Part shown: in pieces, positions 1 to 12,705 of the stretch
Numbering within the stretch: the stretch's first letter is position 1
Layout of the letters: each line of letters opens with the position of its first letter
Source: Thermoanaerobaculia bacterium
GTDB lineage: Bacteria > Acidobacteriota > Thermoanaerobaculia > Multivoradales > UBA5704
Assembly: GCA_044226625.1 (NCBI GenBank)
Contig: JBGAGQ010000111.1
Span: 1 to 12,705, forward strand
DNA length: 12,705 nt
Direction: 5' to 3'
The notes under the pieces: generated by a model
What the model saw: the letters and a program-made list of their open reading frames with translations, nothing else
Database searches by the model: none
What the model was told of the DNA's origin: nothing
Made by a program: the position numbers and the translations under genes

Positions 1-128
1 GTCCGCGGGTTCCCGGCGGCTTGAAGCTGCCGGCCTATGGAGAGCCCAGGTTATCTGCGGAAGGGCTCTTATAGAATGCCCGTAAACGTTCCGCGCTTTC
101 AATGCCGAAGGGATGAAGGACGCTTCCG

Positions 129-395
129 ATGCCGCCAATCCTGTTGCTGCACCTGTCGGATCTGCATTTCGGTAAGCACAGCCGGTTTCAAGGGGAGAAG
201 CCCGAGGCACTCGGGAAGAGCTTTTTCCGCTCGCTCGCCGAAGCGAGAAAGAGCCTCCCGATCGACCCTGAGAAGAAGGTGGATCTGGTGTTTGTCACCG
301 GGGAAGTGGCGGAGGCGGGAAAGAAATCCGAGTTCGAGCAGGGGCGGGCTTCGCGCCCGACGGAGGTGGTTGCTAATGGACACAGCTTGGCGTGA
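129..395 (+). pseudogene. Truncated N-terminal fragment of a calcineurin-like metallophosphoesterase
   Basis: 88-aa ORF with motif I (LLHLSDLHFG) and a degenerate motif II (DLVFVTGEVA, where the GD Asp is Glu). The GNH(D/E) and later His motifs are not in a normal context because the ORF stops early. AAGGA lies upstream. The 3' end overlaps the next gene. Confidence 0.7.
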
Positions 396-1593
396 GGCAG
401 CTCGTCAATATTCTCAGCAAGGTGAGGCTGATAAGACTCGTTACTGGGCCGGGCTTGGTCCGCGCCAACAGGCCATGCTAAAGAGTTCACTCAAGGAAAT
501 CAAAGCGGTTGGCCCGCACCCAACGCCCGAGGCTGGGAACAAGCCAAGACCGAGCGGCTGCGGCCGAGGTTGTGCCAAACTGCTCGGGCGTGGCTGCCTG
601 GTCACATTCGCGGCAATCGCAATGGTCACGCTTTGGAGCAACTTTCCGTGGCTCAGTAAGCCGGCGACCGACCGGTTCGCCTTGTGGCCCGCCAGTACAC
701 GAGACGCAATGGCCTCCAAGGGCTTTGTTGAACAATTTCTACAGAAGGTAGAGCTGCGGAAACAGTACGCCGAAGATGGCTATTTCCCAATCCACGTACT
801 TAGAAAGTGGCTGGAGAATGCGCGCATTAAGAAATCAGATGTGACTGCGGTCAGTATCTTAGATACGGTCCAAGACGGCGGAGGCTGGTGGTTTGATGCC
901 AAAAAACTAGAGGGTGACTATAACGAGATTTCGTCGGCGGTAGCGATTGTGGAACTCTCGGCTGCAGCGCCGGAGGTCTCCTCGCGGCTTCCAATGTCGG
1001 AAGGCACCTTCGAAATACTCCACGGTACGCGGGCCTTCGGGTTCGACCAACCCGTTCGCGTACAGGCCCGTGACCGCGGACCCGCCGTGGAACGTTGGTA
1101 TTTAGCTATGCCAAAGGATACAGTGCTCATTATTGGTGGCCGCACAGGGGTGGAGCAAGTTCTAGCGACGGCAGCTGGCGAACGAGACGGAATCAGAACC
1201 CGACGCGTGATGAGGCCACTGCTCAAAACTATTGAGGATGGCGACGAAATCTATTTTCATAGTGTTTCAATGACCCAGGAGCGATCAATCCCTGTTGTTT
1301 CATGGTTACTTTCTCGGATACCAGGGATTGACCTCCTGTACTCATATCGTGCACAGGCTCGAGTGCTGATTCGGCTTCCCGATGAAAGCTGCATCCGAAC
1401 CGTCGCTTTCCAGTACAAAACTCGAGCATCTGCACAGTTTCATAGGATCGCCCTCTGGGCGGTCAGCTTGACCGCAGGCCCAGATGACGTGGGCTATGAA
1501 GTGAGTGGCGGCCCAGGGCTTGCGGCCTTCACGGAGTCGGCGCCGTGCTCTGGCGCTGCGACATCTTGGGAGAGCCTTCGTTCCTCAAAGTAA
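376..1593 (+). CDS. Hypothetical protein (405 aa) with a single predicted N-proximal transmembrane helix
   Basis: Part of ORF 37..1593. The ATG at 376 has GGAGGT at 362-367. A hydrophobic segment GCLVTFAAIAMVTLWSNFPWL follows a basic G/C-rich linker. The region is visibly less GC-rich than the arg operon. No family recognised. Confidence 0.7.
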   Translation: MDTAWREAARQYSQQGEADKTRYWAGLGPRQQAMLKSSLKEIKAVGPHPTPEAGNKPRPSGCGRGCAKLLGRGCLVTFAAIAMVTLWSNFPWLSKPATDRFALWPASTRDAMASKGFVEQFLQKVELRKQYAEDGYFPIHVLRKWLENARIKKSDVTAVSILDTVQDGGGWWFDAKKLEGDYNEISSAVAIVELSAAAPEVSSRLPMSEGTFEILHGTRAFGFDQPVRVQARDRGPAVERWYLAMPKDTVLIIGGRTGVEQVLATAAGERDGIRTRRVMRPLLKTIEDGDEIYFHSVSMTQERSIPVVSWLLSRIPGIDLLYSYRAQARVLIRLPDESCIRTVAFQYKTRASAQFHRIALWAVSLTAGPDDVGYEVSGGPGLAAFTESAPCSGAATSWESLRSSK

Positions 1594-2001
1594 CCACCCA
1601 CACTCTCACAGCGCCAAAGGAACTTGTGCCAGGCAAATGGCAATGCGAAGCCTTGAGCCACTCCAGAACCGGTAGTTCGAGGCAGGGTGGCGCGGCGTCC
1701 GTATCGCGAAGAGAGGACAGCAGTTGGAGGTCGATTGGGATCCTGAGGAGGAAGATCGCGCCGATGGTCGCGCCGATACCTTCCCCTTCTCGCAGTTCGA
1801 TGGCCGAACGAAGTTCAACGCTCTAGCTAGGCCGTATCTCTAAGAGATGGAGCCCGACCTGGAAGTGGATCGAGACGCCAAGGACTAAACTGTCGATCCT
1901 TGAAACCGTTGTGCGCACAGTAAAGTGAAGCGGCAACGCCAGTTAGCGGCTTTCGGAGGCACAACTTCGCTGCACGGCGTCGATGACCGTTCGGCACGGC
2001 G

Positions 2002-2260
2002 GATAGCCGCTAGGTTCCGCCGAGGGTGGCGATTCTTCCGCGTAAAGCGGCCATCCAGCGCAGATAGTCGTTTTGCGCCGCTGGATAGCCGCTATCCAGC
2101 TTGGATATTCATTATTTCGCTCCGTAAAGCCGCTATACGGCGCAGATAGCCGCTATACGCGCCAGACAAACCGCTATCCAGCGCAGATAGCCGCTATCCG
2201 AGCCAGATAATCCGCTATCGGTCGGCGATAGCCGCTTTACGCGCCGTATAGCAGCTTTAC
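2002..2260. repeat. Tandem array of about 12 degenerate 20-21 bp units, each with the near-palindrome GATAGC-C-GCTATC
   Basis: Unit starts at about 2002, 2043, 2063, 2084, 2104, 2125, 2145, 2165, 2186, 2206, 2227 and 2247. Exact GATAGCCGCTATC occurs at 2084-2096 and 2186-2198. Linkers are 7-8 bp and GC-rich. Confidence 0.9.
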
Positions 2261-2367
2261 GGTGCCGGATCCGCGCTGAATCGCCCGCCGCTACGTTTGC
2301 AACGTCGACGCGGATCTTGAAGGCTGCCCGGGCTTATTCCTGGGACCGCGTTGTCACTCTGCCTTCC

Positions 2368-3555
2368 TTAGACCCCTAGCCGCTCCGCCACGCGCCGGTA
2401 CGCTTCGCGGAACGGGATCCCCTCTTCCATCACCAGCCGATACGCCTCCTCGGCCGCCGAGAGCTCCGGGTCGAGGTGGATCTTTTCCGGGAGGAAGCGG
2501 ACGCCCGGTAGGGCGTGGGCGAGGATCGCCGCGGTTTCGAGCCCCAGGTCGATGCCGCGGAAGAGGGGGGCTTTGAGCAGCTGGAGATCGCGGTGGTAGC
2601 CGGAGGGGAGCTTCGCAGGGATCGCGAGAGCTTCGAGGAGGACCGCGTGCCCGGCGGCGGTGCGGGCGCGGATCAGCTCGAAGACGTCCGGGTTCCGCTT
2701 CTGCGGCATGATCGAGGAACCGGTCGTCATCTCCGCCGGGAGGCTCGCGAAGCCGAGCTCTTTCATCGAAAAGAGGACGAGGTCTGCGGCGAGGCGGCCG
2801 CAGTCTTGGAGGAGGAGGGCGACCTCGAACAGCACGTGCGCTTCGGCCTTGCCGCGGGAGAGCTGGACCGCCGTCACCGGCTCGTGGACGGTGCGGAAGC
2901 CGAGGGCGGCGCGGGTCGATTCACGGTCGATCGGCAGGATCGCCGGAACGCCATAGCCCGCGGCCGAGCCCAGGGGGTTCTTCTCGATCCGGCGGAGCGC
3001 GGCTTCGAATCCTTCCGCGTCGTCGGAAAGCTCGCTCGAAAAGCCGCCGGCCCAGAGCGCCACGGAGCTCGGCATCGCCGGTTGGAGATGCGTGTAGCCC
3101 GGGAGCGGCAGGTCCGGATGCCGCGCGGAGAGATCGTCGAGCGCGGCGGCCACGGCGCGCGCGCCCGCGGCGAGATCGGTCACCGCGTCGCGCAGGTAGA
3201 GCCGGAGGGCGGCGAGCACCTGGTCGTTGCGGGACCGGCCGAGGTGGATGCGGGCGCCCGCTTCGCCGATGCGCTCGGTGAGCCGCCGTTCGAGCGCGGT
3301 GTGGCAGTCCTCGTCGGCCAGCTCGATCCTCCAGGCACCCGCGGCGTGCTCCTCGGCGAGCGCGAGCAGACCGGCGCGGATCGCTTCGAGGTCGGTGGCG
3401 GAGAGGAGGTTTTGCGCCGCGAGCATCTCCGCATGGGCGATCGAGGCGCGGACGTCGTAGGCGACGAGGCGCTCGTCGAGCGCGTGGTCCTCTCCCGCCG
3501 TGTAGCGCAGCACCAGTTCGTCGAGCGGCGTCCCCTTGTCCCAGAGGCGAGTCAC
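2368..3555 (-). CDS. argH: Argininosuccinate lyase (395 aa)
   Basis: GTG at 3555 with AGGAG upstream. N-terminus TRLWDKG, plus HLGRSRNDQV, PGYTHLQPAMP, the fumarate-lyase signature TGSSIMPQKRNPD, SGYHRDLQ and GIPFREAY. Confidence 0.96.
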   Translation of the reverse strand: MTRLWDKGTPLDELVLRYTAGEDHALDERLVAYDVRASIAHAEMLAAQNLLSATDLEAIRAGLLALAEEHAAGAWRIELADEDCHTALERRLTERIGEAGARIHLGRSRNDQVLAALRLYLRDAVTDLAAGARAVAAALDDLSARHPDLPLPGYTHLQPAMPSSVALWAGGFSSELSDDAEGFEAALRRIEKNPLGSAAGYGVPAILPIDRESTRAALGFRTVHEPVTAVQLSRGKAEAHVLFEVALLLQDCGRLAADLVLFSMKELGFASLPAEMTTGSSIMPQKRNPDVFELIRARTAAGHAVLLEALAIPAKLPSGYHRDLQLLKAPLFRGIDLGLETAAILAHALPGVRFLPEKIHLDPELSAAEEAYRLVMEEGIPFREAYRRVAERLGV

Positions 3556-3986
3556 AGCTCGGTCTCCTGGCGGATGGCGAGAGCCCCCCTCCTGTCCTCC
3601 CCCCGTCGAACGACGGGGGGAGGGACCCTCCGCACGCCTCCGGGGAGGATCGGGTGCTGGATGGGTTCCTCCCCGATGCGTCGCGGGGGACCACACTCCG
3701 ACGCCCCGGGCCTATTGTTCGCCCACCCGGCCACCATTACCGCGCCGAAGGCTCCCTTCCCGAAGTCGCTCCGAAGGGGACCAAACGTCGACGTCCCAGG
3801 CTGGCTGCCTGACGACCCAACCACCAACCCCAAGCTGAAAGCTCCCTCCCCGATGTCGCCACGAAGCGGACCGAATACCGACGCCCCGGGCCGCCCATCC
3901 GCCCGCCTAACCACCAACCCCAAGGCGAAGCGTCCCTCCCCCCCTTGCGGGGGGAGGACAGGAGGGGGGGTCTCCTTCCCCCTCAC
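3552..3986 (-). CDS. Possible 144-codon ORF with three 30-aa repeats, bridging argE' and argH
   Basis: The GTG at 3986 overlaps the argE' TGA (GTGA) and has GGAGG 7 nt upstream. Its TGA (3552-3554) overlaps the argH GTG (GTGA). Repeat consensus is roughly GEGxFxLGLVVxxxxxxPGxSxFGPLRxDx. It may be a non-coding repeat that happens to be open. Confidence 0.35.
   Translation of the reverse strand: MRGKETPPPVLPPQGGEGRFALGLVVRRADGRPGASVFGPLRGDIGEGAFSLGLVVGSSGSQPGTSTFGPLRSDFGKGAFGAVMVAGWANNRPGASECGPPRRIGEEPIQHPILPGGVRRVPPPVVRRGEDRRGALAIRQETEL
3584..3970. repeat. Inverted pair of REP/BoxC-like hairpins (3584-3625 and 3933-3970) enclosing three degenerate 90-bp tandem repeats
   Basis: CCCCCCTCCTGTCCTCCCCCC (3584-3604) is the reverse complement of GGGGGGAGGACAGGAGGGGGG (3949-3969). 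Each end has its own CCTCCCCCC-loop-GGGGGGAGG stem. Internal GGACC anchors at 3688, 3778 and 3868 give a 90-bp period. Confidence 0.88.
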
Positions 3987-5059
3987 GCCAACGCCTCCAC
4001 CAACGACAAATAGAACCGCGCCCCCGCGAGGATCTCCTCCTCCTCGACGAACTCGTCGACGCGGTGCGAGCGCTCCGAGCGGCCGGGGCCGCATTTGATC
4101 GCCGGAGCGTCGATCAGCGCCCAGTCCGACAACGTGGGTGACCCGTAAAGCCGCGAGACCGGGCGCACCGAGAGGGCGGCGGTGAGGAGGGGCGAATCGA
4201 CGGGGGTCGAGCGGGGCCGAAGCCGGTCGGAGAGGACGCGCACCTCGGCGCCTACCGCGCAGCCGACCGCGAGGGCTACCTCCTCGGGCTCGACCGCGGG
4301 GGTCGTGCGAACGTCGAGCAGCGCGGACGCCTCGGCCGGCAGGACGTTGCGGGCCGTGCCGGCGCGCAGCTGGGTCGGCTCGAGGGTCACCGGACCGAGC
4401 ATCGAATCGGTGGGGAAATCGAGCGACTCGAGCGCGAGCAGGTCGCGCGCGATCTCGCGCGCGGCGTTCCGGGCGCCGAGCGAGCGGGCGTGCGCGGCGT
4501 GACAAGCGTCGCCCCGGGCGACCAGCTCGAGGACCAGGAGCCCTTTCTGCGCCACCGCGACGTCGAGACCCGTGGGCTCTCCGACCACCGCTCCGGCGAG
4601 CGTCCGCCCGCGCTCGTGGAGCGCGGCGAGCACCTTCTCGGTGCCGAGCCCTTTGGTCTCCTCCTGCTCGACCAGGGCGAGCGCCAAGGCGAACGGGAAC
4701 TGCCGGTCGAGGCAGGCGACGAACGCCGCGGACATCGCGGCCACCGAGGCCTTGGCGTCGTTCGAACCGAGGCCGTAGACCCGCCCTTCTTCGACCGTCG
4801 CGGCGAACGGATCGTGCGACCAGCCCGGCGCCGGGGGGACCGTGTCGAGGTGGGTGTCGAAGAGGAGCACCGGCGCGTCCGGCACCGCGCCTTCGTGCAC
4901 CGCGAGGATCGTATGGCCGAGCCGCTCGACCCGGGCGCCGCGCGCGCCGAGCCACTCGGCCATCGCGAGAGAGAGCGCACCCTCTTCGCCCGATACCGAC
5001 GGGGTCGCGACCGCCAGGCGATGGAGCGCGAGGATCTCCTGCGGGGTGGGGGGCGTCAT
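3983..5059 (-). CDS. argE: M20-family N-acyl-citrulline/ornithine deacylase (ArgE-like), probably N-succinylcitrulline desuccinylase (358 aa)
   Basis: M20 metal-binding motifs THLDTV, YGLGSNDAKAS, EQEETKG, GEPT and RSHRVDEFV. GLGSNDA and GSPTLSDWAL...KCGPGRSERSH match the pattern I recall for Bacteroidota ArgE'. Arg operon context. Confidence 0.88.
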   Translation of the reverse strand: MTPPTPQEILALHRLAVATPSVSGEEGALSLAMAEWLGARGARVERLGHTILAVHEGAVPDAPVLLFDTHLDTVPPAPGWSHDPFAATVEEGRVYGLGSNDAKASVAAMSAAFVACLDRQFPFALALALVEQEETKGLGTEKVLAALHERGRTLAGAVVGEPTGLDVAVAQKGLLVLELVARGDACHAAHARSLGARNAAREIARDLLALESLDFPTDSMLGPVTLEPTQLRAGTARNVLPAEASALLDVRTTPAVEPEEVALAVGCAVGAEVRVLSDRLRPRSTPVDSPLLTAALSVRPVSRLYGSPTLSDWALIDAPAIKCGPGRSERSHRVDEFVEEEEILAGARFYLSLVEALA

Positions 5060-5132
5060 CTTGAAAACCCTCCCACGCCCCCAACCTCGACCCCGGGTCG
5101 AGCCGATCGCGGCGTGCTGGTCATCGGCGGCC

Positions 5133-6056
5133 TCAACCCGCCGCCGCCAGCTCAGCGGGGGAAAGCGCGTGAACGTCGGCTACCACCAGCGTGCCGCTCC
5201 CCTCGTTGGTGAACACCTCGCGAAGCAGCGCGTCCGCCGCGGTCTGCGAGATCACGTGGACCCGCCGCACGCCGTCGCGGAGCGCCTGCTCGATCGCCGC
5301 CGCCTTGGGGCGCATGCCGGCGCCGAGGGCGCCTTTCCGGTTCAGCTCGGCGAGCCCCGCGAGGTCGGTGTAGGAGATTCGCGAGCCGGGATCGTCCTCT
5401 CGTTCGAGGATGCCCGCCGCCCCGGTGAGAACGATCAGCTTCTCGGCCGAGAGCGCCGCGGCGAGACGCGCGGCCACCGTGTCGGCGTTCACGTTCAGGA
5501 GGCCCCCCGCCTCGTCGGCGGAGATCGGGCTCACGACCGGGACGAGCCCCGCGTCGAGCTGGGCGATCACGACCCGCGGATCGACGCGGATCACGTCGCC
5601 CACCAGCCCGTAGTCGACCGTCTCGCCATCGACCTCGACGGGCGGCCGGCGCTTCGCGACGATCAGCCCGGCGTCCACTCCCGAGAGGCCCACGGCGGGC
5701 ACGCCCGCGCGGCGGCAAAGCGCGAGGACGTGGGTGTTCACCTGGCCGTTCAGGACCATCGTCGCCGCTTCGAGCGAAATCGGATCGGTCACCCGCCGGC
5801 CGGCTTTGAACTCGACTTTGGCGCCCAGGGTACCGGCCAAGGCAGAGGCCTGCGGACCGCCGCCGTGGACGAGCACCACGCGCACGCCGAGGCGGTTCAG
5901 GATCTCCACCTGCTCGAGCAGGGCGAGCGTGGTCTTCTCGTCGGAAAACGCGCCGCCGCCCGCTTTCAAGACGAAGGTCTTCCCCTGGTAGAGGCGGATG
6001 TAAGGGATCGCGAGCTTGAGCCCGGCGACCTCCAGGTTCGAATCGTGATGGTCCAT
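5133..6056 (-). CDS. argB: N-acylglutamate kinase (307 aa), arginine-sensitive type, with no fused acetyltransferase domain
   Basis: ATG at 6056 with a GGGGGA RBS. Motifs AIPYIRLYQGKTFVLKAGG, VHGGGPQ, GRRVTD, NVNADTVA, GMRPK and C-terminal LLREVFTNEGSGT. Confidence 0.93.
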   Translation of the reverse strand: MDHHDSNLEVAGLKLAIPYIRLYQGKTFVLKAGGGAFSDEKTTLALLEQVEILNRLGVRVVLVHGGGPQASALAGTLGAKVEFKAGRRVTDPISLEAATMVLNGQVNTHVLALCRRAGVPAVGLSGVDAGLIVAKRRPPVEVDGETVDYGLVGDVIRVDPRVVIAQLDAGLVPVVSPISADEAGGLLNVNADTVAARLAAALSAEKLIVLTGAAGILEREDDPGSRISYTDLAGLAELNRKGALGAGMRPKAAAIEQALRDGVRRVHVISQTAADALLREVFTNEGSGTLVVADVHALSPAELAAAG

Positions 6057-6076
6057 GCGCTTCCCCCTTGCCGATC

Positions 6077-7099
6077 TCAAGCCAACAGGCGGTGCAACAC
6101 CGCCATCTGCGCCCACATTCGGTTGTGCGCCTGCGGCAGCACGGCGCTGCGCGGCCCGTCGAGCACCTCGTCGGCGACGACGACGTTGCGCCGCACCGGC
6201 AGGCAGTGGAAGAACCGCGCGCCGGCCGCCGCGGGGCGGAACCAGGGCTCGGCGATCGTCCAGTCCGCGTAGCGCGCGCGCAGCTCGGTTTCCGCCGCGA
6301 GATCACCGTAGTGCGCGGCAGACGCCCACGACTTGCCGTAGACGACGTGCGCGCCCGAGATCGCCGCCTCGCGGTCGGCGGTCTCGGTGACCGATCCGCC
6401 CGCGATCGCCGCCGCGGCGCGAGCCCGCGCCATCAGCGGCTCGGGGAGCGCGTACTCGTCGGGGCGGAGGACGACGACCTCCATGCCACGCGCCGCCGCC
6501 ATCTGGACGACGGTCGCGGGGACGGCGAGCGGCAGCGGCTTCGGATGCCGCGCCCAGGAGAGGACGAGCTTGCCGCCGTGGGCGGGAATCCCGAGGTCGT
6601 CGAGCGTCTTCCAGTCGCCGAGCGCTTGGCACGGGTGGTCGATCGCCGATTCGAGGTTGATCAGCGGGACGGGATAGCTCTCTTCGAGCGTCCGCGCCAT
6701 CGCGGCGAACGTCGCGTCCGAGAGATCCTCGGCCAGATCGCTCCCTCCCGCGAACGAGCGGATGCCGAGCGCGTGGGCGTAGCCCGCGAGCACGGGGATC
6801 GCCTCGCGCACGTGCTCGGCCGCCGCGCCGTCCATCACCGCGCCGAGGCGCGTCTCGAGCTGCCAGCTCCCCTGGCCGGGCGAGACGACGAAGCACGAGC
6901 CACCGAGCCGCGCCATCCCGGCCTGAAAGCTCGAAAGCGTGCGGAGCGACGGGTTGAAGAACAGCAGCCCGAGGACCTTGCCCGGAAGCGCCCGCGCGAG
7001 GGCCGCCGGGTCGGGATGCTTTTCGAACCGCGCGGCGAGCGCGAGCAGCTCGGCGATCTCCTCCGCCGAGTGCTCCGAGAGTGAGACGAAGCGCTTCAC
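6077..7099 (-). CDS. argF': N-acylornithine carbamoyltransferase (ArgF'), probably N-succinylornithine-specific (340 aa)
   Basis: The GTG at 7099 overlaps the argD stop (GTGA), with GGAGG upstream. FFNPSLRT (not the OTCase STRT), WQLE, MDGAAAEH, HPCQAL, WARHPKPLP, KSW and HCLPVRRN are AOTCase/SOTCase signatures. Confidence 0.92.
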   Translation of the reverse strand: MKRFVSLSEHSAEEIAELLALAARFEKHPDPAALARALPGKVLGLLFFNPSLRTLSSFQAGMARLGGSCFVVSPGQGSWQLETRLGAVMDGAAAEHVREAIPVLAGYAHALGIRSFAGGSDLAEDLSDATFAAMARTLEESYPVPLINLESAIDHPCQALGDWKTLDDLGIPAHGGKLVLSWARHPKPLPLAVPATVVQMAAARGMEVVVLRPDEYALPEPLMARARAAAAIAGGSVTETADREAAISGAHVVYGKSWASAAHYGDLAAETELRARYADWTIAEPWFRPAAAGARFFHCLPVRRNVVVADEVLDGPRSAVLPQAHNRMWAQMAVLHRLLA

Positions 7100-8316
7100 C
7101 CCGCGCCTCCCGGCAGATCCTGAAGAGCGGAAACGAGCGCGTCCACGTGGGAATCTTCGAGCACCAGCGGCGGCAGCAGGCGCAGAACCGCGGGATCGGC
7201 GCTCGTCCCGGCGAGCAGGCCGCGATCGAGCAGCTCCTTCTGCACCGCGCTCGCCGGCCGCGCGCAGCGCAGCCCGAGCAGGAACCCTGCGCCCTGGACG
7301 CCGGTGACCACGCCGCCCACGCCCTCCTCGGCGATCCGCTTCGAGAGCCGGCGCACGCGAGCGAGCAGATCCTCCTCCTCGATCGCCGTGATCGTCGCTT
7401 CGATCAACGCGCAGGCGAGCGGGCCTCCGCCGAACGTCGTGCCGAGGTCTCCCTTCTTCAAGCCCGCGGCGAGATCGTCCGAGACCATCACCGCGGCGGC
7501 CGGAAAGCCCCCGGCGAGCCCTTTGGCGGTCGTCAGCAGGTCGGGGGTGACGCCGTAGAGCTGCGCCGCGAACGGCTGGCCGGTCCGCCCCATGCCGCAC
7601 TGGACCTCGTCGAAGATCAGCGCCGCGCCGGCTTCGCGCGTCAGCTCGCGCGCCACCGAGAGATACGAGGCACCCAGATCGACCGCGCCGGCCATCCCCT
7701 GCACCGGCTCGAGGATCAGCGCCGCGGCGCCCTGGTCGTCGCCGCCCCGCGAGGCGAGCGCGCCGGCGAGCGCCTCGAGATCGCCCGGCGGCACGAACTC
7801 GACGTCGAACGGATGGCGCGGAAACGCCGCCCACTTCTCGGCGCCCCAGGTCACCGCCGCCGCCGCCGCGGTGCGGCCGTGGAAGCTCCCTTTCAGGGCG
7901 ACCACGCGCTTCCGCCCGGTCTTTCGGAACGCCAGCCGGAGCGCATTCTCGTTCGCCTCGGCGCCGCTGTTGACCAGGAACGCCCGGGAGAGCCCGGCCG
8001 GCGCGAAGCTCGCCAGCTTTTCCGCGGCGCGGGCCCGCACCTCGAGCGGCACGAGATTGCTCTGGAAGAACATCGCTTTCGCCTGGGCGGAGAGCGCCTC
8101 GAGCAACCGCGGATGGCCGTAGCCCAAGAGCGCCACGGCGTGGCCGCCGTAGAAATCGATCAGCTCGCGCCCGTCGCGGGTGAAGAGCTTCACGCCGTCG
8201 CCGCGCACCGGCTCGACCGGCAGCTGGGCATAGACGGGAAGCGTCCAACGCGCCTCGTGCGCCGCGGCGTCCGTCGCGGGAGCGATCTCCTTCGGTGCCA
8301 TCACGACCTGCGGCAT
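7096..8316 (-). CDS. argD: Acyl-ornithine aminotransferase, class III PLP enzyme (406 aa)
   Basis: GGAGG RBS before the ATG at 8316. Motifs NSGAEANE, SFHGRT, EPVQG, LIFDEVQCGMGRTG, AKGLAGG (PLP Lys), GTTFGGGP and LRLLPPL. Confidence 0.92.
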   Translation of the reverse strand: MPQVVMAPKEIAPATDAAAHEARWTLPVYAQLPVEPVRGDGVKLFTRDGRELIDFYGGHAVALLGYGHPRLLEALSAQAKAMFFQSNLVPLEVRARAAEKLASFAPAGLSRAFLVNSGAEANENALRLAFRKTGRKRVVALKGSFHGRTAAAAAVTWGAEKWAAFPRHPFDVEFVPPGDLEALAGALASRGGDDQGAAALILEPVQGMAGAVDLGASYLSVARELTREAGAALIFDEVQCGMGRTGQPFAAQLYGVTPDLLTTAKGLAGGFPAAAVMVSDDLAAGLKKGDLGTTFGGGPLACALIEATITAIEEEDLLARVRRLSKRIAEEGVGGVVTGVQGAGFLLGLRCARPASAVQKELLDRGLLAGTSADPAVLRLLPPLVLEDSHVDALVSALQDLPGGAG

Positions 8317-8367
8317 GTCTCGCCTCCTGGGTGACCCACTTTCGATGCTTCGCTGCTCCGACCTTCG

Positions 8368-8450
8368 CCCTCAAGCCCCTTTCCCAAGGAGAGGGGAACC
8401 GCCTCCATCAATCTGTCGTTCTCCCCTCTCCCCCCGGGAGAGGGCTTGGG
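8368..8450. repeat. Inverted pair of REP/BoxC-like hairpins in the argC-argD spacer
   Basis: CCCTCAAGCCCCTTTCCCAAGGAGAGGGGA (8368-8397) resembles the reverse complement of 8422-8450 (CCCAAGCCCTCTCCCGGGGGGAGAGGGGA). Same architecture as the 3584/3933 elements. Confidence 0.8.
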
Positions 8451-8451
8451 A

Positions 8452-9546
8452 TCAAATCCAGCCCAGCCCCGGCTGTGCGAGCCCCGCCACCTCGGGCAGG
8501 TCGAGTAGCCGGTTCATCCATTGCACCGCGCCGCCGGCCGCCCCTTTGACCAGGTTGTCGATCGTCGAGAAGGCGACCAGGTCGCTTCCCCGCACGGCAA
8601 ACGAGAGCAGCGCGCGGTTCGTGCCGACGACGTCCTGGAGGCGCGGCGGCTTGCCACCCTGCGCGGTGGCGACCTTCACGAACGGCGAGCCGGCGTAGAA
8701 GCGCGCAACCCCTTCCGCCACCTCTTCGAGGTCGACCGGCTTCGCGAGCCGGGCGTGGATCGTCGCGTAGATGCCGCGCGCGTACGGCCCCGACTGCGGC
8801 ACGAACGCGATCTCGACCGGCCCACCCGCGGCGCGCCCGGTGTGCAGGCGCATCTCCGGCTCGTGCCGGTGGGCGAGCGGGTTGTAGGCGAACAGGTTGC
8901 TCCGCCGCTCCGGGTGGTGCGTCGTCGCGGTGGGCGTCCGACCGGCGCCGGTGCTCCCCGTGACGGCCACCACGGTGAAGCGCGGCTCGATCAGGCCGAG
9001 CGAAAGGAGCGGCACCGAGGCGAGCAGCACCGAGGTGGTGAAGCAACCGGGATGAGCGACCCGGCCGTGCGGCGCCGAGGCGAGATGCTCCGGAACGGCC
9101 GAGACGAACTCCGGCAGGCGGGCCGGCGCGCCGTGCGGATGGCCGTAGACCGCCTCGTACGCCGCCGCGTCGGGAAAACGGAAGTCCGCCGACAGGTCGA
9201 CCAGCTTGACCCGCGCCCCGGCGTGCTCGGCGTTCTCGAGCAGCTCATCGATCAACCGCGCCGAGGCGCCGTGCGGGGCGGCCGAAAAGACGGCGACTGT
9301 CTCGTTCTCGGAAAACAGCCGCGGCAGTGCGTCCGTGCCGAGGAACTTGAGGCCCGGGTACGCCCCTTCGAGATGGGGAAACGCCTCCTCGACGAGAGAG
9401 CCCGGCTTGCTCTCGGAGATCGGCGCGAGATCGCGCAGGAACGGATGAACGGCGAGCAGCCGGAGGAGCTCCCCCGCGATGTAACCCGATCCGCCGATCA
9501 CCACCGTGCGGGCGGTGCCGTGGCCTCCAACTCCCGAGCCGCTCAA
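8452..9546 (-). CDS. argC: N-acyl-gamma-glutamyl-phosphate reductase (364 aa)
   Basis: The TTG start overlaps the upstream stop (TTGA, 9543-9546), with a GGGGAG RBS. Rossmann motif IGGSGYIAGELLRLL, VDLSADFR, catalytic HPGCF, TGSTGAGR, HRHEPEM and IDNLVKGAAGGAVQ. Confidence 0.94.
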   Translation of the reverse strand: MSGSGVGGHGTARTVVIGGSGYIAGELLRLLAVHPFLRDLAPISESKPGSLVEEAFPHLEGAYPGLKFLGTDALPRLFSENETVAVFSAAPHGASARLIDELLENAEHAGARVKLVDLSADFRFPDAAAYEAVYGHPHGAPARLPEFVSAVPEHLASAPHGRVAHPGCFTTSVLLASVPLLSLGLIEPRFTVVAVTGSTGAGRTPTATTHHPERRSNLFAYNPLAHRHEPEMRLHTGRAAGGPVEIAFVPQSGPYARGIYATIHARLAKPVDLEEVAEGVARFYAGSPFVKVATAQGGKPPRLQDVVGTNRALLSFAVRGSDLVAFSTIDNLVKGAAGGAVQWMNRLLDLPEVAGLAQPGLGWI

Positions 9547-10628
9547 CTCGCGAGCTCCCCGCCCGCGACGTGCGCGGGGGACAACGACATCAGGCGCGAG
9601 CGGACCAGCTTGGCGAGCCGCTCCCCGTCGGTCCGGGCGTTGATCGCCGGGACACCCACGGTCTCTTCGATGATCCGCGTCCCCACCAGGTTGTCGGTCG
9701 CCGGGCCGGTGACGGCGACCGGCTCGACGCCGAAGCGCTCGCGCAGCAGGCGCACGCCGCCCCAGGCGGCGACCGGGTCGTTCGCCGCGAGGACGACCGC
9801 CGTGAACGCCTTCTTGACCTCGTCGTCATCGAGGATCGCGTCGACCCCGTAGGCTCCGAGCAGGCCGTCGCCGAGCTCCACCATGATCGCCTCGGGCTTG
9901 CCCGCGGCGAGCTGGGTGAGCAGCGTGCGGGTGAGCGCCGCGGCGTTGACCGCCGAGGTCGAGACGATGCCGAGATCGGTGAAGATCGCCGTCGTCCGCG
10001 CGCCCGCGTCCTCCATCGCCAGGATGTCGCGGCGGAGCGATACGCCGGTCGCCTTGAACGCGTCGACCGTGTACCCGGCGTGGGAGAGCTGGCGGACCAG
10101 CGTACAGGCCGCCGCGGTCTTGCCGCTGTTCATGCACGAGCCGACGAGCGCGATCACCGGCACGCCGGCCGCGTCGAGCGGCGCCGAGAGGTCGAGCGGC
10201 CGCTCGCCGATCCGCGCCGGAACGCCGACCCGCTCGCCGAGGAACGGAAACGAAAGCACGGCTCCGATCACCTCCGCCTCGAACGGCGGCCCGAGGTCGG
10301 GGTTGATCGAATCGCAGATACCGACCACTCCGCCGATGTTCAACAGGTTCACCTTGTCGCCCGGCACCAGGTGGTCGGGGATGTGGCCCGAATAGCCGAA
10401 CAGCGCCTGCCGATGGCCGAGCGCTCCGGCGAGGACGTCGCCTTTCTTGACCAGCGCCATCCGCCCGCTCGGCAGCTCGAGCTGGTTATAGGTCGACTTG
10501 TCGGTGAGCACCCGCACGGCGACCACGATCCCTTCGCGGCAGGGGATCTCCGCGCTGGTGAGCACCTCCCGCTTCAAGCGGCAGGTCTTGGTCACCGACG
10601 CGATCTTGTCGAGCACGACGGCTTTCAT
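9543..10628 (-). CDS. Uncharacterised P-loop protein (361 aa), DUF1611/DgcN-like and BioD-like; candidate N-acylglutamate synthase
   Basis: The ATG at 10628 overlaps the argG TGA (ATGA), with a GGAGGA RBS. Its stop overlaps the argC start. Walker A-like VGSCMNSGKT (10116-10142), FKATG, RRD and MVELGDGLL (9864-9878). The CDS is secure, the function is inferred. Confidence 0.85.
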   Translation of the reverse strand: MKAVVLDKIASVTKTCRLKREVLTSAEIPCREGIVVAVRVLTDKSTYNQLELPSGRMALVKKGDVLAGALGHRQALFGYSGHIPDHLVPGDKVNLLNIGGVVGICDSINPDLGPPFEAEVIGAVLSFPFLGERVGVPARIGERPLDLSAPLDAAGVPVIALVGSCMNSGKTAAACTLVRQLSHAGYTVDAFKATGVSLRRDILAMEDAGARTTAIFTDLGIVSTSAVNAAALTRTLLTQLAAGKPEAIMVELGDGLLGAYGVDAILDDDEVKKAFTAVVLAANDPVAAWGGVRLLRERFGVEPVAVTGPATDNLVGTRIIEETVGVPAINARTDGERLAKLVRSRLMSLSPAHVAGGELAS

Positions 10629-11887
10629 ACGGATTCCTCCAGACCAGCCCGCTGATGGAGCATGCCGGGAAGCGCGGCCAGCCGCGACATCCCCCGGGCA
10701 TCCTCCGAAGTCCACTCCCCCGCCGCCTCACCGTAGACGCCGCGCGTCGCGGCGAGCAGCGAATGAGGCGACGTCACCCCTTCGACGAACAGGTTCCCCG
10801 GCCGGAAGCGGAGCCGGACCTCGCCGGTCACCCGCTCCTGGCTCCGGAGCAACAGCGCCTCGATGTCGCGGCAGACCGGATCGAGATGCTGCCCCTCGTG
10901 GACGAGATCGCCGTAGGTCTGGGCGACGCCCTCCTTCACCCGCTGCTGCCGGCCGGTGAGGGTGAGCTTCTCGAGCTCGCGATGCGCCGTGAGCAACACC
11001 TCGGCCGCCGGCGCCTCGAACGCGACGCGTCCCTTGGTACCGAGGATCGTGTCGCCGAGATGAATGCCGCGACCGATCGCGTAGGGCGCCGCCTCGCGCT
11101 CGATCCGCTCGATCAGCTCGACGGGCGCGAGCGCCTCGCCGTCCCAGGAGGTCGGAATTCCGCGCGTGAAACCGAGCCGGTGGACCACCGTCGGCCGCGG
11201 ATCGTCGAACGCGCCGCGGGAGAGCACCCACGCCTCCTCCGGGATCGTCCCCTCGCTGGTGAGCGTCTCCTTGCCGCCGATCGTCGTCCCCCAGAGCCCC
11301 CGGTTGATCGAATAGGCGGCGCCGAACGGCGGGACAGGCAGCTCCTTCGCCTGGAGATAGGCCACCTGGGCCGCCCGCGGGCGCGGATAGTCGCGCACCG
11401 GGGCGAGGATCTCGAGCCCGGGCGCGAGCGTGCGGAGGGCGACCTCGAAACGCACCTGGTCGTTGCCCGCGGCGGTGCAGCCGTGGGCCACCGTGCGCGA
11501 GCCGAGCGACGCCGCGGCGCGCGCGACCTCCTGCGCCTGGATCGACCGCTCGGCCCCGACCGAGAGCGGATAGAGCTGGCCGCGGCGGACGTTGCCGAGG
11601 ATCAGGAAGCGGAGCACCTGATCGAAGAAGCGCTCGCGCGCCTCGATCCGATGGTGGGCGATCGCCCCGAGCGCCCGCGAGCGCTCGGCGAGCTCCTCGA
11701 CCGCGGCCGGATCGAGCCCGCCGGTGTCGACCGTCACCGTCACCACCGGCCGGCCGTAGGTCTCGGCGAGCCACGGGATGCAGTACGACGTGTCGAGCCC
11801 GCCCGAAAACGCGAGGACGATCGGCTCGCCGGGGTCCGAGGCCGTAACCGGTCCGGTAGAACCGACGTTCGATGCGAGGTCAGCCAT
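10625..11887 (-). CDS. argG: Argininosuccinate synthase (420 aa)
   Basis: Motifs VLAFSGGLDTS, AHGCTAAGNDQVRF, YSINRGLWG and GTKGRVAFEAPAA. GAGGAG RBS. 8-bp overlap with the argR stop. Confidence 0.96.
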   Translation of the reverse strand: MADLASNVGSTGPVTASDPGEPIVLAFSGGLDTSYCIPWLAETYGRPVVTVTVDTGGLDPAAVEELAERSRALGAIAHHRIEARERFFDQVLRFLILGNVRRGQLYPLSVGAERSIQAQEVARAAASLGSRTVAHGCTAAGNDQVRFEVALRTLAPGLEILAPVRDYPRPRAAQVAYLQAKELPVPPFGAAYSINRGLWGTTIGGKETLTSEGTIPEEAWVLSRGAFDDPRPTVVHRLGFTRGIPTSWDGEALAPVELIERIEREAAPYAIGRGIHLGDTILGTKGRVAFEAPAAEVLLTAHRELEKLTLTGRQQRVKEGVAQTYGDLVHEGQHLDPVCRDIEALLLRSQERVTGEVRLRFRPGNLFVEGVTSPHSLLAATRGVYGEAAGEWTSEDARGMSRLAALPGMLHQRAGLEESV

Positions 11888-12344
11888 CTACGTGCTCCTC
11901 CCGCAAGAGATCCAGATGACGCAGGAACCGCTGTTGATCCCGGGCGTTCGCCGTGGCGACGAAGATCGTGTCGTCCCCCGCGAGCGTGCCCACCACCTCC
12001 GACCATCCGGCACGGTCGATCGCGATCGCGACCGTCTGCGCCGTACCCACGGCCGTCTCGAGCACGACCAGATTCGCGCCGGCCTTCCGCGCTCCGCGGA
12101 CGAACCGGCCGATCGGCCCAAAATCGGCACCCGCCGTCGCCTCCGCCGCGGGAGCCACGTAATGCCCCGCGACCTTCGCCACGCCGAGGAAACGGAGATC
12201 CCGGCTCACGCTCGACTGCGTCGCTTCGATCCCGTGCTCTCCGAGGAGGTCCACCAGCTCCAGCTGGTTCGCCACCCGGCGCGCCCGGAGCAGATCCAAG
12301 ATCACTCGTCGTCGGTCTCGATGCAGATCGTCTTCCGGCGTCAT
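11880..12344 (-). CDS. argR: Arginine repressor (154 aa)
   Basis: ATG at 12344 with AGGGAG upstream. Winged-HTH NQLELVDLL...ATQSSVSRDL and arginine-binding VGTLAGDDTIFV. Confidence 0.95.
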   Translation of the reverse strand: MTPEDDLHRDRRRVILDLLRARRVANQLELVDLLGEHGIEATQSSVSRDLRFLGVAKVAGHYVAPAAEATAGADFGPIGRFVRGARKAGANLVVLETAVGTAQTVAIAIDRAGWSEVVGTLAGDDTIFVATANARDQQRFLRHLDLLREEHVDG

Positions 12345-12412
12345 GTCTTCGGCTCTCCCTCGCGCGCCCGCATCCACCGCTCGACGCCGCGGCGCGCAAA
12401 AGAATGCGGCGG

Positions 12413-12441
12413 ATACTGCATGATGATGCATGAATAGTCAA
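12413..12441 (-). promoter_or_regulatory. Putative sigma70-type promoter of the arg operon, overlapped by ARG boxes
   Basis: On the minus strand: TTGACT (12441-12436), 17 bp, CAGTAT (12418-12413). Palindrome TGCAT-GATG-ATGCA at 12417-12430, and a second box TGCAT-GAAT-AGTCA at 12427-12440, both fitting TG(A/C)AT-N4-AT(G/T)CA. This is an AT-rich patch in GC-rich DNA, directly upstream of argR. Confidence 0.75.
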
Positions 12442-12474
12442 GCGGAGAAGGCGCGGATTTGGGATGTCCGCAGA

Positions 12475-12705
12475 GTCGGGCTCTAGCGGCCTTTCAGGCC
12501 GCGCTCCATTCCCCCTGCCTACCCAGGGCATCGGCCTTCGGCCTCAGCCCTGGGCTGGAATCTACCGGCCCGTTGGGCCGGCAGGAAAGGCAGCTCCCAA
12601 CCGCGTCCCGAAAGGCCGGCAGTCAAAGATTGTCTCCAACCCACGGCCGAAGCGGCACGCATGCCCGCGGCCTGAAAGGCCGCCAGAACCCAGCCCAGGG
12701 CTGAG
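12475..12705. repeat. Cluster of REP-like palindromes of a second family, in inverted arrangement, running off the window end
   Basis: GCGGCCTTTCAGGCCGC (12486-12502) has an exact reverse complement at 12667-12683. CTCAGCCCTGGGCTG (12544-12558) has its reverse complement at 12691-12705. Further hairpins are CCCAGGGC...GCCCTGGG (12522-12554) and CCGGCCC-GTT-GGGCCGG (12565-12581). Confidence 0.85.

Follow-up and report, generated by a model that had tools for sequence, protein, structure and literature searches.

A known analogue, by proposed reaction, of the gene considered here is BT3761 of Bacteroides thetaiotaomicron, presented in PMC8121099 as a GNAT-type N-succinylglutamate synthase for which fitness data show arginine auxotrophy. 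Glutamate is also the substrate of DgcN, which N-acylates the D isomer according to the title of PDB entry 7XRJ and to a GapMind preprint of 2026 that cites Yu et al. 2023 (bioRxiv 10.1101/2024.10.14.618325, version 2026-07-02). In its section 11 and Appendix 2 the same preprint predicts for ACG33_RS14135 of Steroidobacter the role discussed below, on the grounds of arg-cluster linkage, exclusion with the Pseudomonas aeruginosa-type ArgA, a weak Foldseek match to 7XRJ and residue 92 of ArgF'; in these sections the role is given as a prediction, with no assay reported. The subject of the present analysis is gene X (9543..10628, minus strand; 361 aa in translation), which lies in a stretch of 12,705 nucleotides (the window: the whole of what was analysed, contig JBGAGQ010000111.1, positions 1 to 12,705, of assembly GCA_044226625.1) from a Thermoanaerobaculia bacterium of the Acidobacteriota. 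We infer that X is likely to be the first-step synthase of arginine biosynthesis, which forms N-succinyl-L-glutamate from L-glutamate and replaces ArgA or ArgJ.

The synthase idea for X is not new, as it has already been published as a prediction. An original prediction for the window, made from its letters alone, had proposed that X replaces ArgA and had added that a similar proposal might exist. The latter is borne out by the GapMind preprint (its section 11 and Appendix 2; bioRxiv 10.1101/2024.10.14.618325), and the former is supported here: X is linked to arg clusters, it and ArgJ or ArgA exclude each other, the ArgF' beside it is of the succinyl type, and one homologue is fused to an ArgB-like kinase. 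The literature search found no paper joining DUF1611 to arginine biosynthesis and no proposal beyond the GapMind papers. In the proposed pathway X would convert L-glutamate to N-succinyl-L-glutamate and thereby open a linear N-succinyl-type route, in which ArgB, ArgC and ArgD would lead from N-succinylglutamate to N-succinylornithine, ArgF' would carbamoylate the latter, an M20 deacylase would free citrulline and succinate, and ArgG and ArgH would complete arginine.

Linkage of X to arginine genes and exclusion of ArgJ and ArgA

Linkage of X to arginine genes was observed directly in every locus that was compared. The locus set consisted of the best 80 of 592 confirmed X relatives from a scan of one genome per species, and was searched by tblastn with the window's own arg proteins (E <= 1e-10, coverage of at least 50%). 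X was found among arg genes in 80 of 80 loci, with argC in 74, argG in 70, argR in 68, argB in 60, argD in 56, argF' in 55, argH in 51 and an M20 argE in 19. The gene order argR-argG-X-argC-argD-argF'-argB-(argE)-argH recurs across the loci; arg genes that are missing are mostly explained by contig ends, and a few Steroidobacteraceae loci have X-argC-argB alone. The acidobacterial-type loci, one of which is titled Planctomycetota, are 66-93% identical to X, and the gammaproteobacterial ones (Steroidobacteraceae, Woeseiaceae, Chromatiales) 60-67%. In these 80 loci the neighbourhoods of homologues, which the original prediction had named as a check on arg clustering, agree with it.

A second link to the pathway comes from representative P0194 (626 aa), in which an X homologue is followed by an ArgB-like amino-acid kinase that shares 33% identity over 278 aa with the ArgB of the window. 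The fusion ties X to the enzyme expected to act on what X makes. It is known from a single cluster, and the protein possibly comes from a contig end, since its N-terminus is without about 40 residues of X. In the X-ArgC "fusions" P0150 and P0284 gene calling may have been misled by the overlap of stop and start.

The nature of the acyl group is suggested by ArgF' (N-acylornithine carbamoyltransferase; 6077..7051, minus strand; NF003384 at 330 bits with a cut-off of 288). The position considered is that of E92 in Xanthomonas campestris N-acetylornithine carbamoyltransferase, located by alignment to PDB 3kzc and its E92 mutants 3l02 (Ala), 3l05 (Ser) and 3l06 (Val). Shi et al. 2007, as related in the preprint, tie Ala, Pro, Ser or Val at this position to specificity for N-succinylornithine (bioRxiv 10.1101/2024.10.14.618325). 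In the alignment the window's ArgF' has Ala at the equivalent position (codon 6818-6820), and across the X loci the residue is Ala in 53 and Ser in three of 56, which on sequence grounds marks the window's ArgF' as being of the predicted succinyl type.

Exclusion of the classical first-step enzymes was likewise observed directly, beginning with the genome that carries the window (6.6 Mb in 133 contigs, 97.9% complete). ArgJ had no match in the whole genome, the classical ArgA model matched the kinase part of argB only, and neither the LysX pre-ATP-grasp domain nor LysW was found; a genome search for PF04768 came up empty, as did its control, and carries no weight. X itself has no ArgA (AAK plus GNAT), ArgJ, GNAT or NAT match in Pfam or NCBIfam, and a GNAT domain was found in none of the operon proteins with the same two libraries. 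The original prediction's statement that the operon is without argA, argJ and lysX/lysW thus extends to the genome as searched, and its statement on GNAT domains holds among the operon proteins.

In a sample of 201 Acidobacteriota genomes spread evenly across the phylum, the X profile matched 57 at E <= 1e-10 with bimodal scores. Orthologue-grade matches were present in 49, of which 48 are full-length at 364-471 bits and one, in G053, is partial. ArgJ was found in 47 genomes and together with an X orthologue in none of the 201, while classical ArgA scored above its cut-off in a single genome (G059) that is not an X carrier. ArgC (E <= 1e-40) was found in 112 genomes, covering all 49 X carriers and all 47 ArgJ carriers. 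The same pattern was seen in 151 gammaproteobacterial genomes, the class of a Steroidobacteraceae carrier, of which four carry an X orthologue and seven a lower-scoring form: ArgA was present in 91 of the 151 and in 7/7 carriers of the lower-scoring form, and in 0/4 carriers of the orthologue. Three further gammaproteobacterial carriers (G202-G204) are also without ArgA, which makes 0/7 in total. Among the genomes counted, G024, G049 and G152 of the phylum sample and G243 and G345 of the class sample are flagged as unpublished; with these removed there are 47 X-orthologue carriers and ArgA stands at 89/149, and the zero overlap is unchanged. The anticorrelation that the original prediction had looked to is thus seen for ArgJ in the Acidobacteriota and for ArgA in the gammaproteobacterial sample.

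Two side observations belong to these samples. The partial copy in G053 (G053:C29:4974-6176) covers X residues 1-75 only and shares an open frame of 723 aa with argC; a congener has the full gene, and the copy may be decayed or mis-assembled. A selenoprotein reading of ArgC, raised by "1 TGA" flags in ArgJ-type genomes, was discarded, as the three cases checked have the normal catalytic Cys and no internal stop.

The mutual exclusion of X and ArgJ would also be expected if X were an ArgJ-like recycling transacylase, taking the succinyl group of N-succinylornithine or N-succinylcitrulline and passing it to glutamate in a cyclic path. This is very improbable, and the distribution of the M20 deacylase speaks on both sides. 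The M20 argE is present in 0/55 of the loci outside the acidobacterial type (L027-L082 except L050), which are titled as Gammaproteobacteria, for the most part, or as other Pseudomonadota, as would suit a cycle, and S. denitrificans is without a recognisable ArgE according to the preprint (bioRxiv 10.1101/2024.10.14.618325). On the other hand, 19/19 acidobacterial-type loci long enough to show it keep by argB and argH the M20 deacylase, for which a cycle would have no need, and a cycle would still need a de novo synthase. In addition, we know of no P-loop enzyme that performs nucleotide-free transacylation. If X is instead the succinylglutamate synthase of a linear pathway, DapE is a candidate deacylase in the 55 loci without the M20 gene.

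In the window itself the operon reads argR-argG-X-argC-argD-argF'-argB-argE-argH, all on the minus strand, and its content, as listed in the original prediction, was confirmed with Pfam and NCBIfam. The first gene of the cluster is argR, for the arginine repressor (11880..12431), followed by argG, for argininosuccinate synthase (10625..11887), the stop of which overlaps the start of X. Downstream of X lie argC (8452..9546; TIGR01850 at 287 bits, above its cut-off) and argD, for an acyl-ornithine aminotransferase (7096..8316). Beyond argF' comes argB (5133..6116), for an N-acylglutamate kinase that consists of the kinase domain alone, without a fused acetyltransferase, and the real start of which is probably downstream of the start of its longest open reading frame. 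The last two genes are those for an M20 deacylase of the ArgE/DapE family (3983..5059), a candidate N-succinylcitrulline desuccinylase, and argH, for argininosuccinate lyase (2368..3576; TIGR00838, above its cut-off). The gap between argE and argH contains, at 3579-3974, 27-nt inverted-repeat arms (3579-3605 and 3948-3974, 96% complementary) that enclose three tandem 90-nt direct repeats (3686-3955), the second and third copies being 70% and 61% identical to the first. This structure may be a repeat element within the operon, for instance one resembling a miniature inverted-repeat transposable element; no Rfam family was found in the window, the repeat element included. The longest open reading frame 3' of argH (37-1593, plus strand; 518 aa) has no Pfam match and a compositionally odd translation, and may not be a real gene.

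Fold of X and its possible chemistry

X is single-copy in its genome. Its ATG start (10628-10626) shares the sequence ATGA with the stop of argG and is preceded, 6 nt 5' of the ATG, by the ribosome-binding site GGAGGA (10635..10640, minus strand), and its TGA stop (9545-9543) shares TTGA with the TTG start of the longest argC open reading frame. These features, read from the sequence, are as the original prediction had given them. The ATG start is further supported by the conservation of M1, which is nearly invariant (at least 90%) in 21 aligned orthologue N-termini. An AlphaFold2 model built with the family alignment as input (mean predicted local distance difference test, pLDDT, 95.3) shows a beta-rich domain over residues ~1-130, a linker and a Rossmann-like P-loop domain, the two-domain layout that had been proposed from the letters alone. 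With the alignment of 53 diverse family members taken into account, the N-terminal domain is placed at residues 1-150 (10179..10628, minus strand), and the structural search and hhalign place a SIMIBI-type P-loop domain at residues ~155-350 (9579..10166, minus strand). All three motifs named in the original prediction are present in the translation, i.e., the Walker A motif GSCMNSGKT at residues 163-171 (10116..10142, minus strand), FKATG at residues 191-195 with K192 at 10053..10055 (minus strand), and VELGDGLL at residues 250-257, of which VELGDG (residues 250-255; 9864..9881, minus strand) is Walker-B-like. Across the 53 members P84, G169, K170, K192, E251 and D284 are invariant, and R73 and T171, together with G71 and G81 in the N-domain, are nearly so.

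No family of Pfam or NCBIfam matches X above threshold, and its sole Pfam match is to MobB, below threshold (E 0.0019). The homologues of X at E <= 0.001 fall into more than 7000 clusters (90% identity), almost all of which bear the name "hypothetical protein" and lack Pfam domains; the top-scoring ones are labelled Thermoanaerobaculia. Of the representatives at 50% identity, 1481 reach E <= 0.001 and 194 reach E <= 1e-30. A single-sequence search of the PDB returned only a chance match to L7/L12 (E 0.35), and a profile search of the same database returned short P-loop matches to BioD, FtsY and MobB (E >= 2e-4) and no DUF1611 chain. In the ESM Atlas X matches only clusters of its own kind, some of them auto-named "DUF1611 domain-containing", and in one such cluster 16% of the members carry PF07755.

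The fold relationships could be observed directly. In the structural search with the whole model DUF1611 proteins came out on top (2g0t at Z 17.4, 2obn at Z 16.9), followed by BioD (1a82, Z 16.1) and DgcN (7xrj, Z 15.8 with a root-mean-square deviation, rmsd, of 3.0 over 182 aligned residues), the last two being tied within about one Z unit. The matches are confined essentially to the P-loop half. The N-domain, which has no Pfam match, gave when folded alone an all-beta model (pLDDT 73.7) with no clear known fold, since its best structural match reached only Z 3.7 (LexA C-domain, Tudor). With Foldseek against the PDB the first matches of the model were signal recognition particle (SRP) GTPases, BioD and HypB at E ~1e-6, and 7XRJ was absent among the matches listed. 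By hhalign X aligned with the DUF1611 alignment at a probability of 87.4% (E 3.7e-6, 192 columns, X alignment columns 135-343) and with the BioD alignment at 94.1% (E 1.3e-7, 172 columns), and DUF1611 aligned with BioD at 94.3%. At E <= 1, PF07755 was touched by 32 of the 53 X relatives (best 1.3e-5) and PF13500 by 11.

Membership of either family was considered and rejected. X has no PF07755 match at E <= 0.01 and hhalign aligns its P-loop half alone with DUF1611, and neither TIGR00347 nor PF13500 matches X above its cut-off. On profile and model comparison X is a third branch of the BioD/DUF1611 clade. The caution of the original prediction on its own family assignment was justified: X is a remote relative of DUF1611/DgcN and of BioD, at about equal distance, and is not a DUF1611 member.

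In the proposed architecture the P-loop domain, as a member of this clade, would bind a phosphate-bearing cosubstrate, and the family-specific beta-rich N-domain, with the invariant P84 and the nearly invariant R73, probably supplies the glutamate site. The acyl donor is tentatively taken to be succinyl-coenzyme A (succinyl-CoA), by analogy with acetyl-CoA for DgcN, which we take to be an acetyl-CoA-using DUF1611 enzyme; this precedent is what makes succinyl-CoA the favoured donor, at somewhat less than even chances. A different chemistry is possible, if doubtful, in which X is an ATP- or GTP-dependent succinate:L-glutamate ligase that acts via succinyl phosphate on the P-loop, without a CoA thioester. 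Succinate released by ArgE would then be reused directly and re-attached for one ATP. Such a ligase would fit the slightly better hhalign score against BioD than against DUF1611, although the two probabilities differ little and the profiles were built from few sequences (9 and 5). It would also fit K192, which hhalign places opposite the conserved Lys of the "KP" motif in BioD, a residue that contacts the gamma-phosphate in that enzyme and is missing from the DUF1611 profile at this position. The invariance of G169, K170 and E251 and the near invariance of T171 are as phosphoryl transfer would need; E251 aligns with the Glu of BioD EGAGG and of DUF1611 EGQGS alike. However, DUF1611 also keeps the Walker A Lys/Thr and the Glu of EGQGS, and DgcN is described as an acetyltransferase. 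Because DUF1611 keeps the same residues, P-loop conservation cannot discriminate between a transferase and a ligase, and the choice of donor is not decidable from sequence alone, as the residues are common to X, DUF1611 and the BioD-like enzymes. ATP-dependent amidoligases and formyl-tetrahydrofolate synthetase are among the fold matches (7dpt at Z 15.2, 4ioj at Z 13.5), and BioD, CobQ, CTP synthase and formyl-tetrahydrofolate synthetase provide analogies for the activation of a carboxyl or carbonyl group. Against a ligase, every characterised N-acylglutamate synthase, to our knowledge, uses an acyl-CoA or an acyl-amino acid.

Exceptions and the paralogue subfamily

A number of observations weigh against X as the first-step synthase. 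The support for this role is wholly computational, both here and in the preprint (bioRxiv 10.1101/2024.10.14.618325). Related genomes are not independent, so that fewer independent events lie behind the exclusion than the counts suggest, and the distribution figures are to be read as counts, not as statistics. The fold evidence fails to single out an acyltransferase, since P-loop families as varied as DUF1611, BioD, HypB, CTP synthase and SRP GTPases all reach Z 14-17 against X. The check for GNAT domains covered the operon proteins, and GNAT acyltransferases may be encoded elsewhere in the 6.6-Mb genome. Furthermore, 16 of the 112 ArgC-positive Acidobacteriota genomes are without both X and ArgJ. 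Six of these 16 were examined: G004 has a Pfam-confirmed LysX/LysW lysine cluster (LysX/LysY/LysZ-type) and is for this reason no counter-example, G010, G025 and G162 have the same argC-argB-argD gene pattern as G004, and in G048 only argC-argB was seen. The sixth, G181, is a true exception. Its genome is 98% complete and carries argC-argD-argF'-argB (L110, G181:C1:333000-350000) with no X anywhere, and it is also without ArgJ and classical ArgA; four genomes of the same genus have X beside argC. As this arg cluster is found without X or ArgJ, another first-step synthase must exist in G181. No GNAT replacement was found within the cluster, the neighbours of which are MlaE/F/D transport genes and glycolysis genes.

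The same side of the balance holds the lower-scoring form of X, a subfamily that matches the family profile at about 200-228 bits and is the sole X-type match in eight Acidobacteriota genomes (197-222 bits). It lies outside arg clusters and occurs with ArgJ in 2/8 of these genomes (G038 and G152, the latter flagged as unpublished) and with ArgA in all seven of its gammaproteobacterial carriers. At three of its loci (L084 8256-9524, minus strand; L085 8240-9472, minus strand; L087 7889-8896, plus strand) there are no arg neighbours; the genes nearby are for cytochrome oxidase, FMN reductase, a YheC/D-type ATP-grasp protein (at one locus), an M50 peptidase and other unrelated products. The subfamily is a paralogue with a substrate other than that of X, and the wider X family is not uniformly ArgA-like. 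Because the paralogues lie outside arg clusters and co-occur with ArgJ or ArgA, the ArgA-like reading is best limited to the arg-cluster clade.

The case of G181, which manages without X, may also be read to mean that X is an accessory nucleoside triphosphatase, e.g., a factor for regulation or assembly, or a G3E-like metallochaperone that serves the M20 deacylase, and that an unrecognised GNAT carries out the first step. Fold matches to HypB, UreG and MeaB-type GTPases and to MinD/ParA ATPases (Z 12-15), the weak MobB matches and the GNATs that may lie elsewhere in the genome are in keeping with this. It is nevertheless unlikely, as a chaperone for the M20 enzyme fails to explain X in gammaproteobacterial clusters without an M20 gene, the exact exclusion with ArgJ and ArgA is left unexplained, and the fusion described above joins X to ArgB, the enzyme that would take its product.

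Significance and comparison with known systems

If X in the arg-cluster clade is the synthase, many genomes would gain an enzyme for a step that is now scored as missing (more than 7000 homologue clusters at the thresholds given above), with carriers that include soil Acidobacteriota, Steroidobacteraceae, Woeseiaceae and Chromatiales, and predictions of auxotrophy for uncultured soil and sediment bacteria would improve. It would also represent a further independent origin of N-acylglutamate synthesis beside ArgA, ArgJ and GNAT/NAT, on a P-loop scaffold. Should the enzyme prove to be a ligase, the first step of arginine synthesis would gain a new chemistry, and the P-loop clade a new class of reaction. 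To the published prediction the present analysis adds support from a second phylum, through an acidobacterial member, and a second displaced enzyme, ArgJ; it sets the true orthologues apart from the paralogue subfamily outside arg clusters, and the BioD-like features that it describes keep an ATP-dependent mechanism in play.

Among the known systems ACG33_RS14135 is the nearest, and X is very probably its orthologue, judging from Steroidobacteraceae relatives that belong to its family, have the same context and are likewise without ArgE. The proxies used for it are more than 20 loci with Steroidobacteraceae in the title, where identity to X is 60-67% over ~340 residues; these orthologues share gene order with the X locus. 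As described in the preprint (section 11, Appendix 2), ACG33_RS14135 is like X a hypothetical protein in an arg cluster with argF', the ArgF' is of the succinyl type and the carriers are without ArgA, and both proteins have a weak structural likeness to DgcN (7XRJ) (bioRxiv 10.1101/2024.10.14.618325). They differ in that the acidobacterial clusters add an M20 ArgE-like gene which the gammaproteobacterial ones are without, and exclusion in these sections of the preprint concerns ArgA only, whereas here it extends to ArgJ.

DgcN and the other DUF1611 proteins (PF07755 with PF17396; 7XRJ, 2G0T, 2OBN) share the P-loop fold with X at Z 15.8-17.4 and an rmsd of 2.7-3.0 over 182-188 residues, and the chemistry of DgcN, N-acylation of glutamate in its D isomer, works on the same skeleton as proposed for X. 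The N-domains of the two do not align, that of DUF1611 being Rossmann-like and that of X beta-rich, and DUF1611 is without an equivalent of K192. X and a true DUF1611 protein can share a genome, as in G089. BioD (TIGR00347/PF13500) has in common with X the Walker A GxxxxGKT, a Lys after the second strand and an hhE-G-x-G motif, and K170, K192 and E251 of X fall in the hhalign columns of the BioD Walker A, the KP Lys and the EGxGG Glu, respectively. It differs in being a single domain of ~225 aa, whereas X has an extra N-domain of 150 aa and is without the GTD Asp of the BioD Walker A, and in its reaction, which is the closure of a ureido ring and no acyl transfer. BT3761, finally, has the same reaction as that proposed for X and, according to PMC8121099, lies in a succinyl-type arg operon beside argG and argC. 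Its GNAT fold is unrelated to the P-loop of X, and its role is backed by genetic evidence, whereas that of X is predicted.

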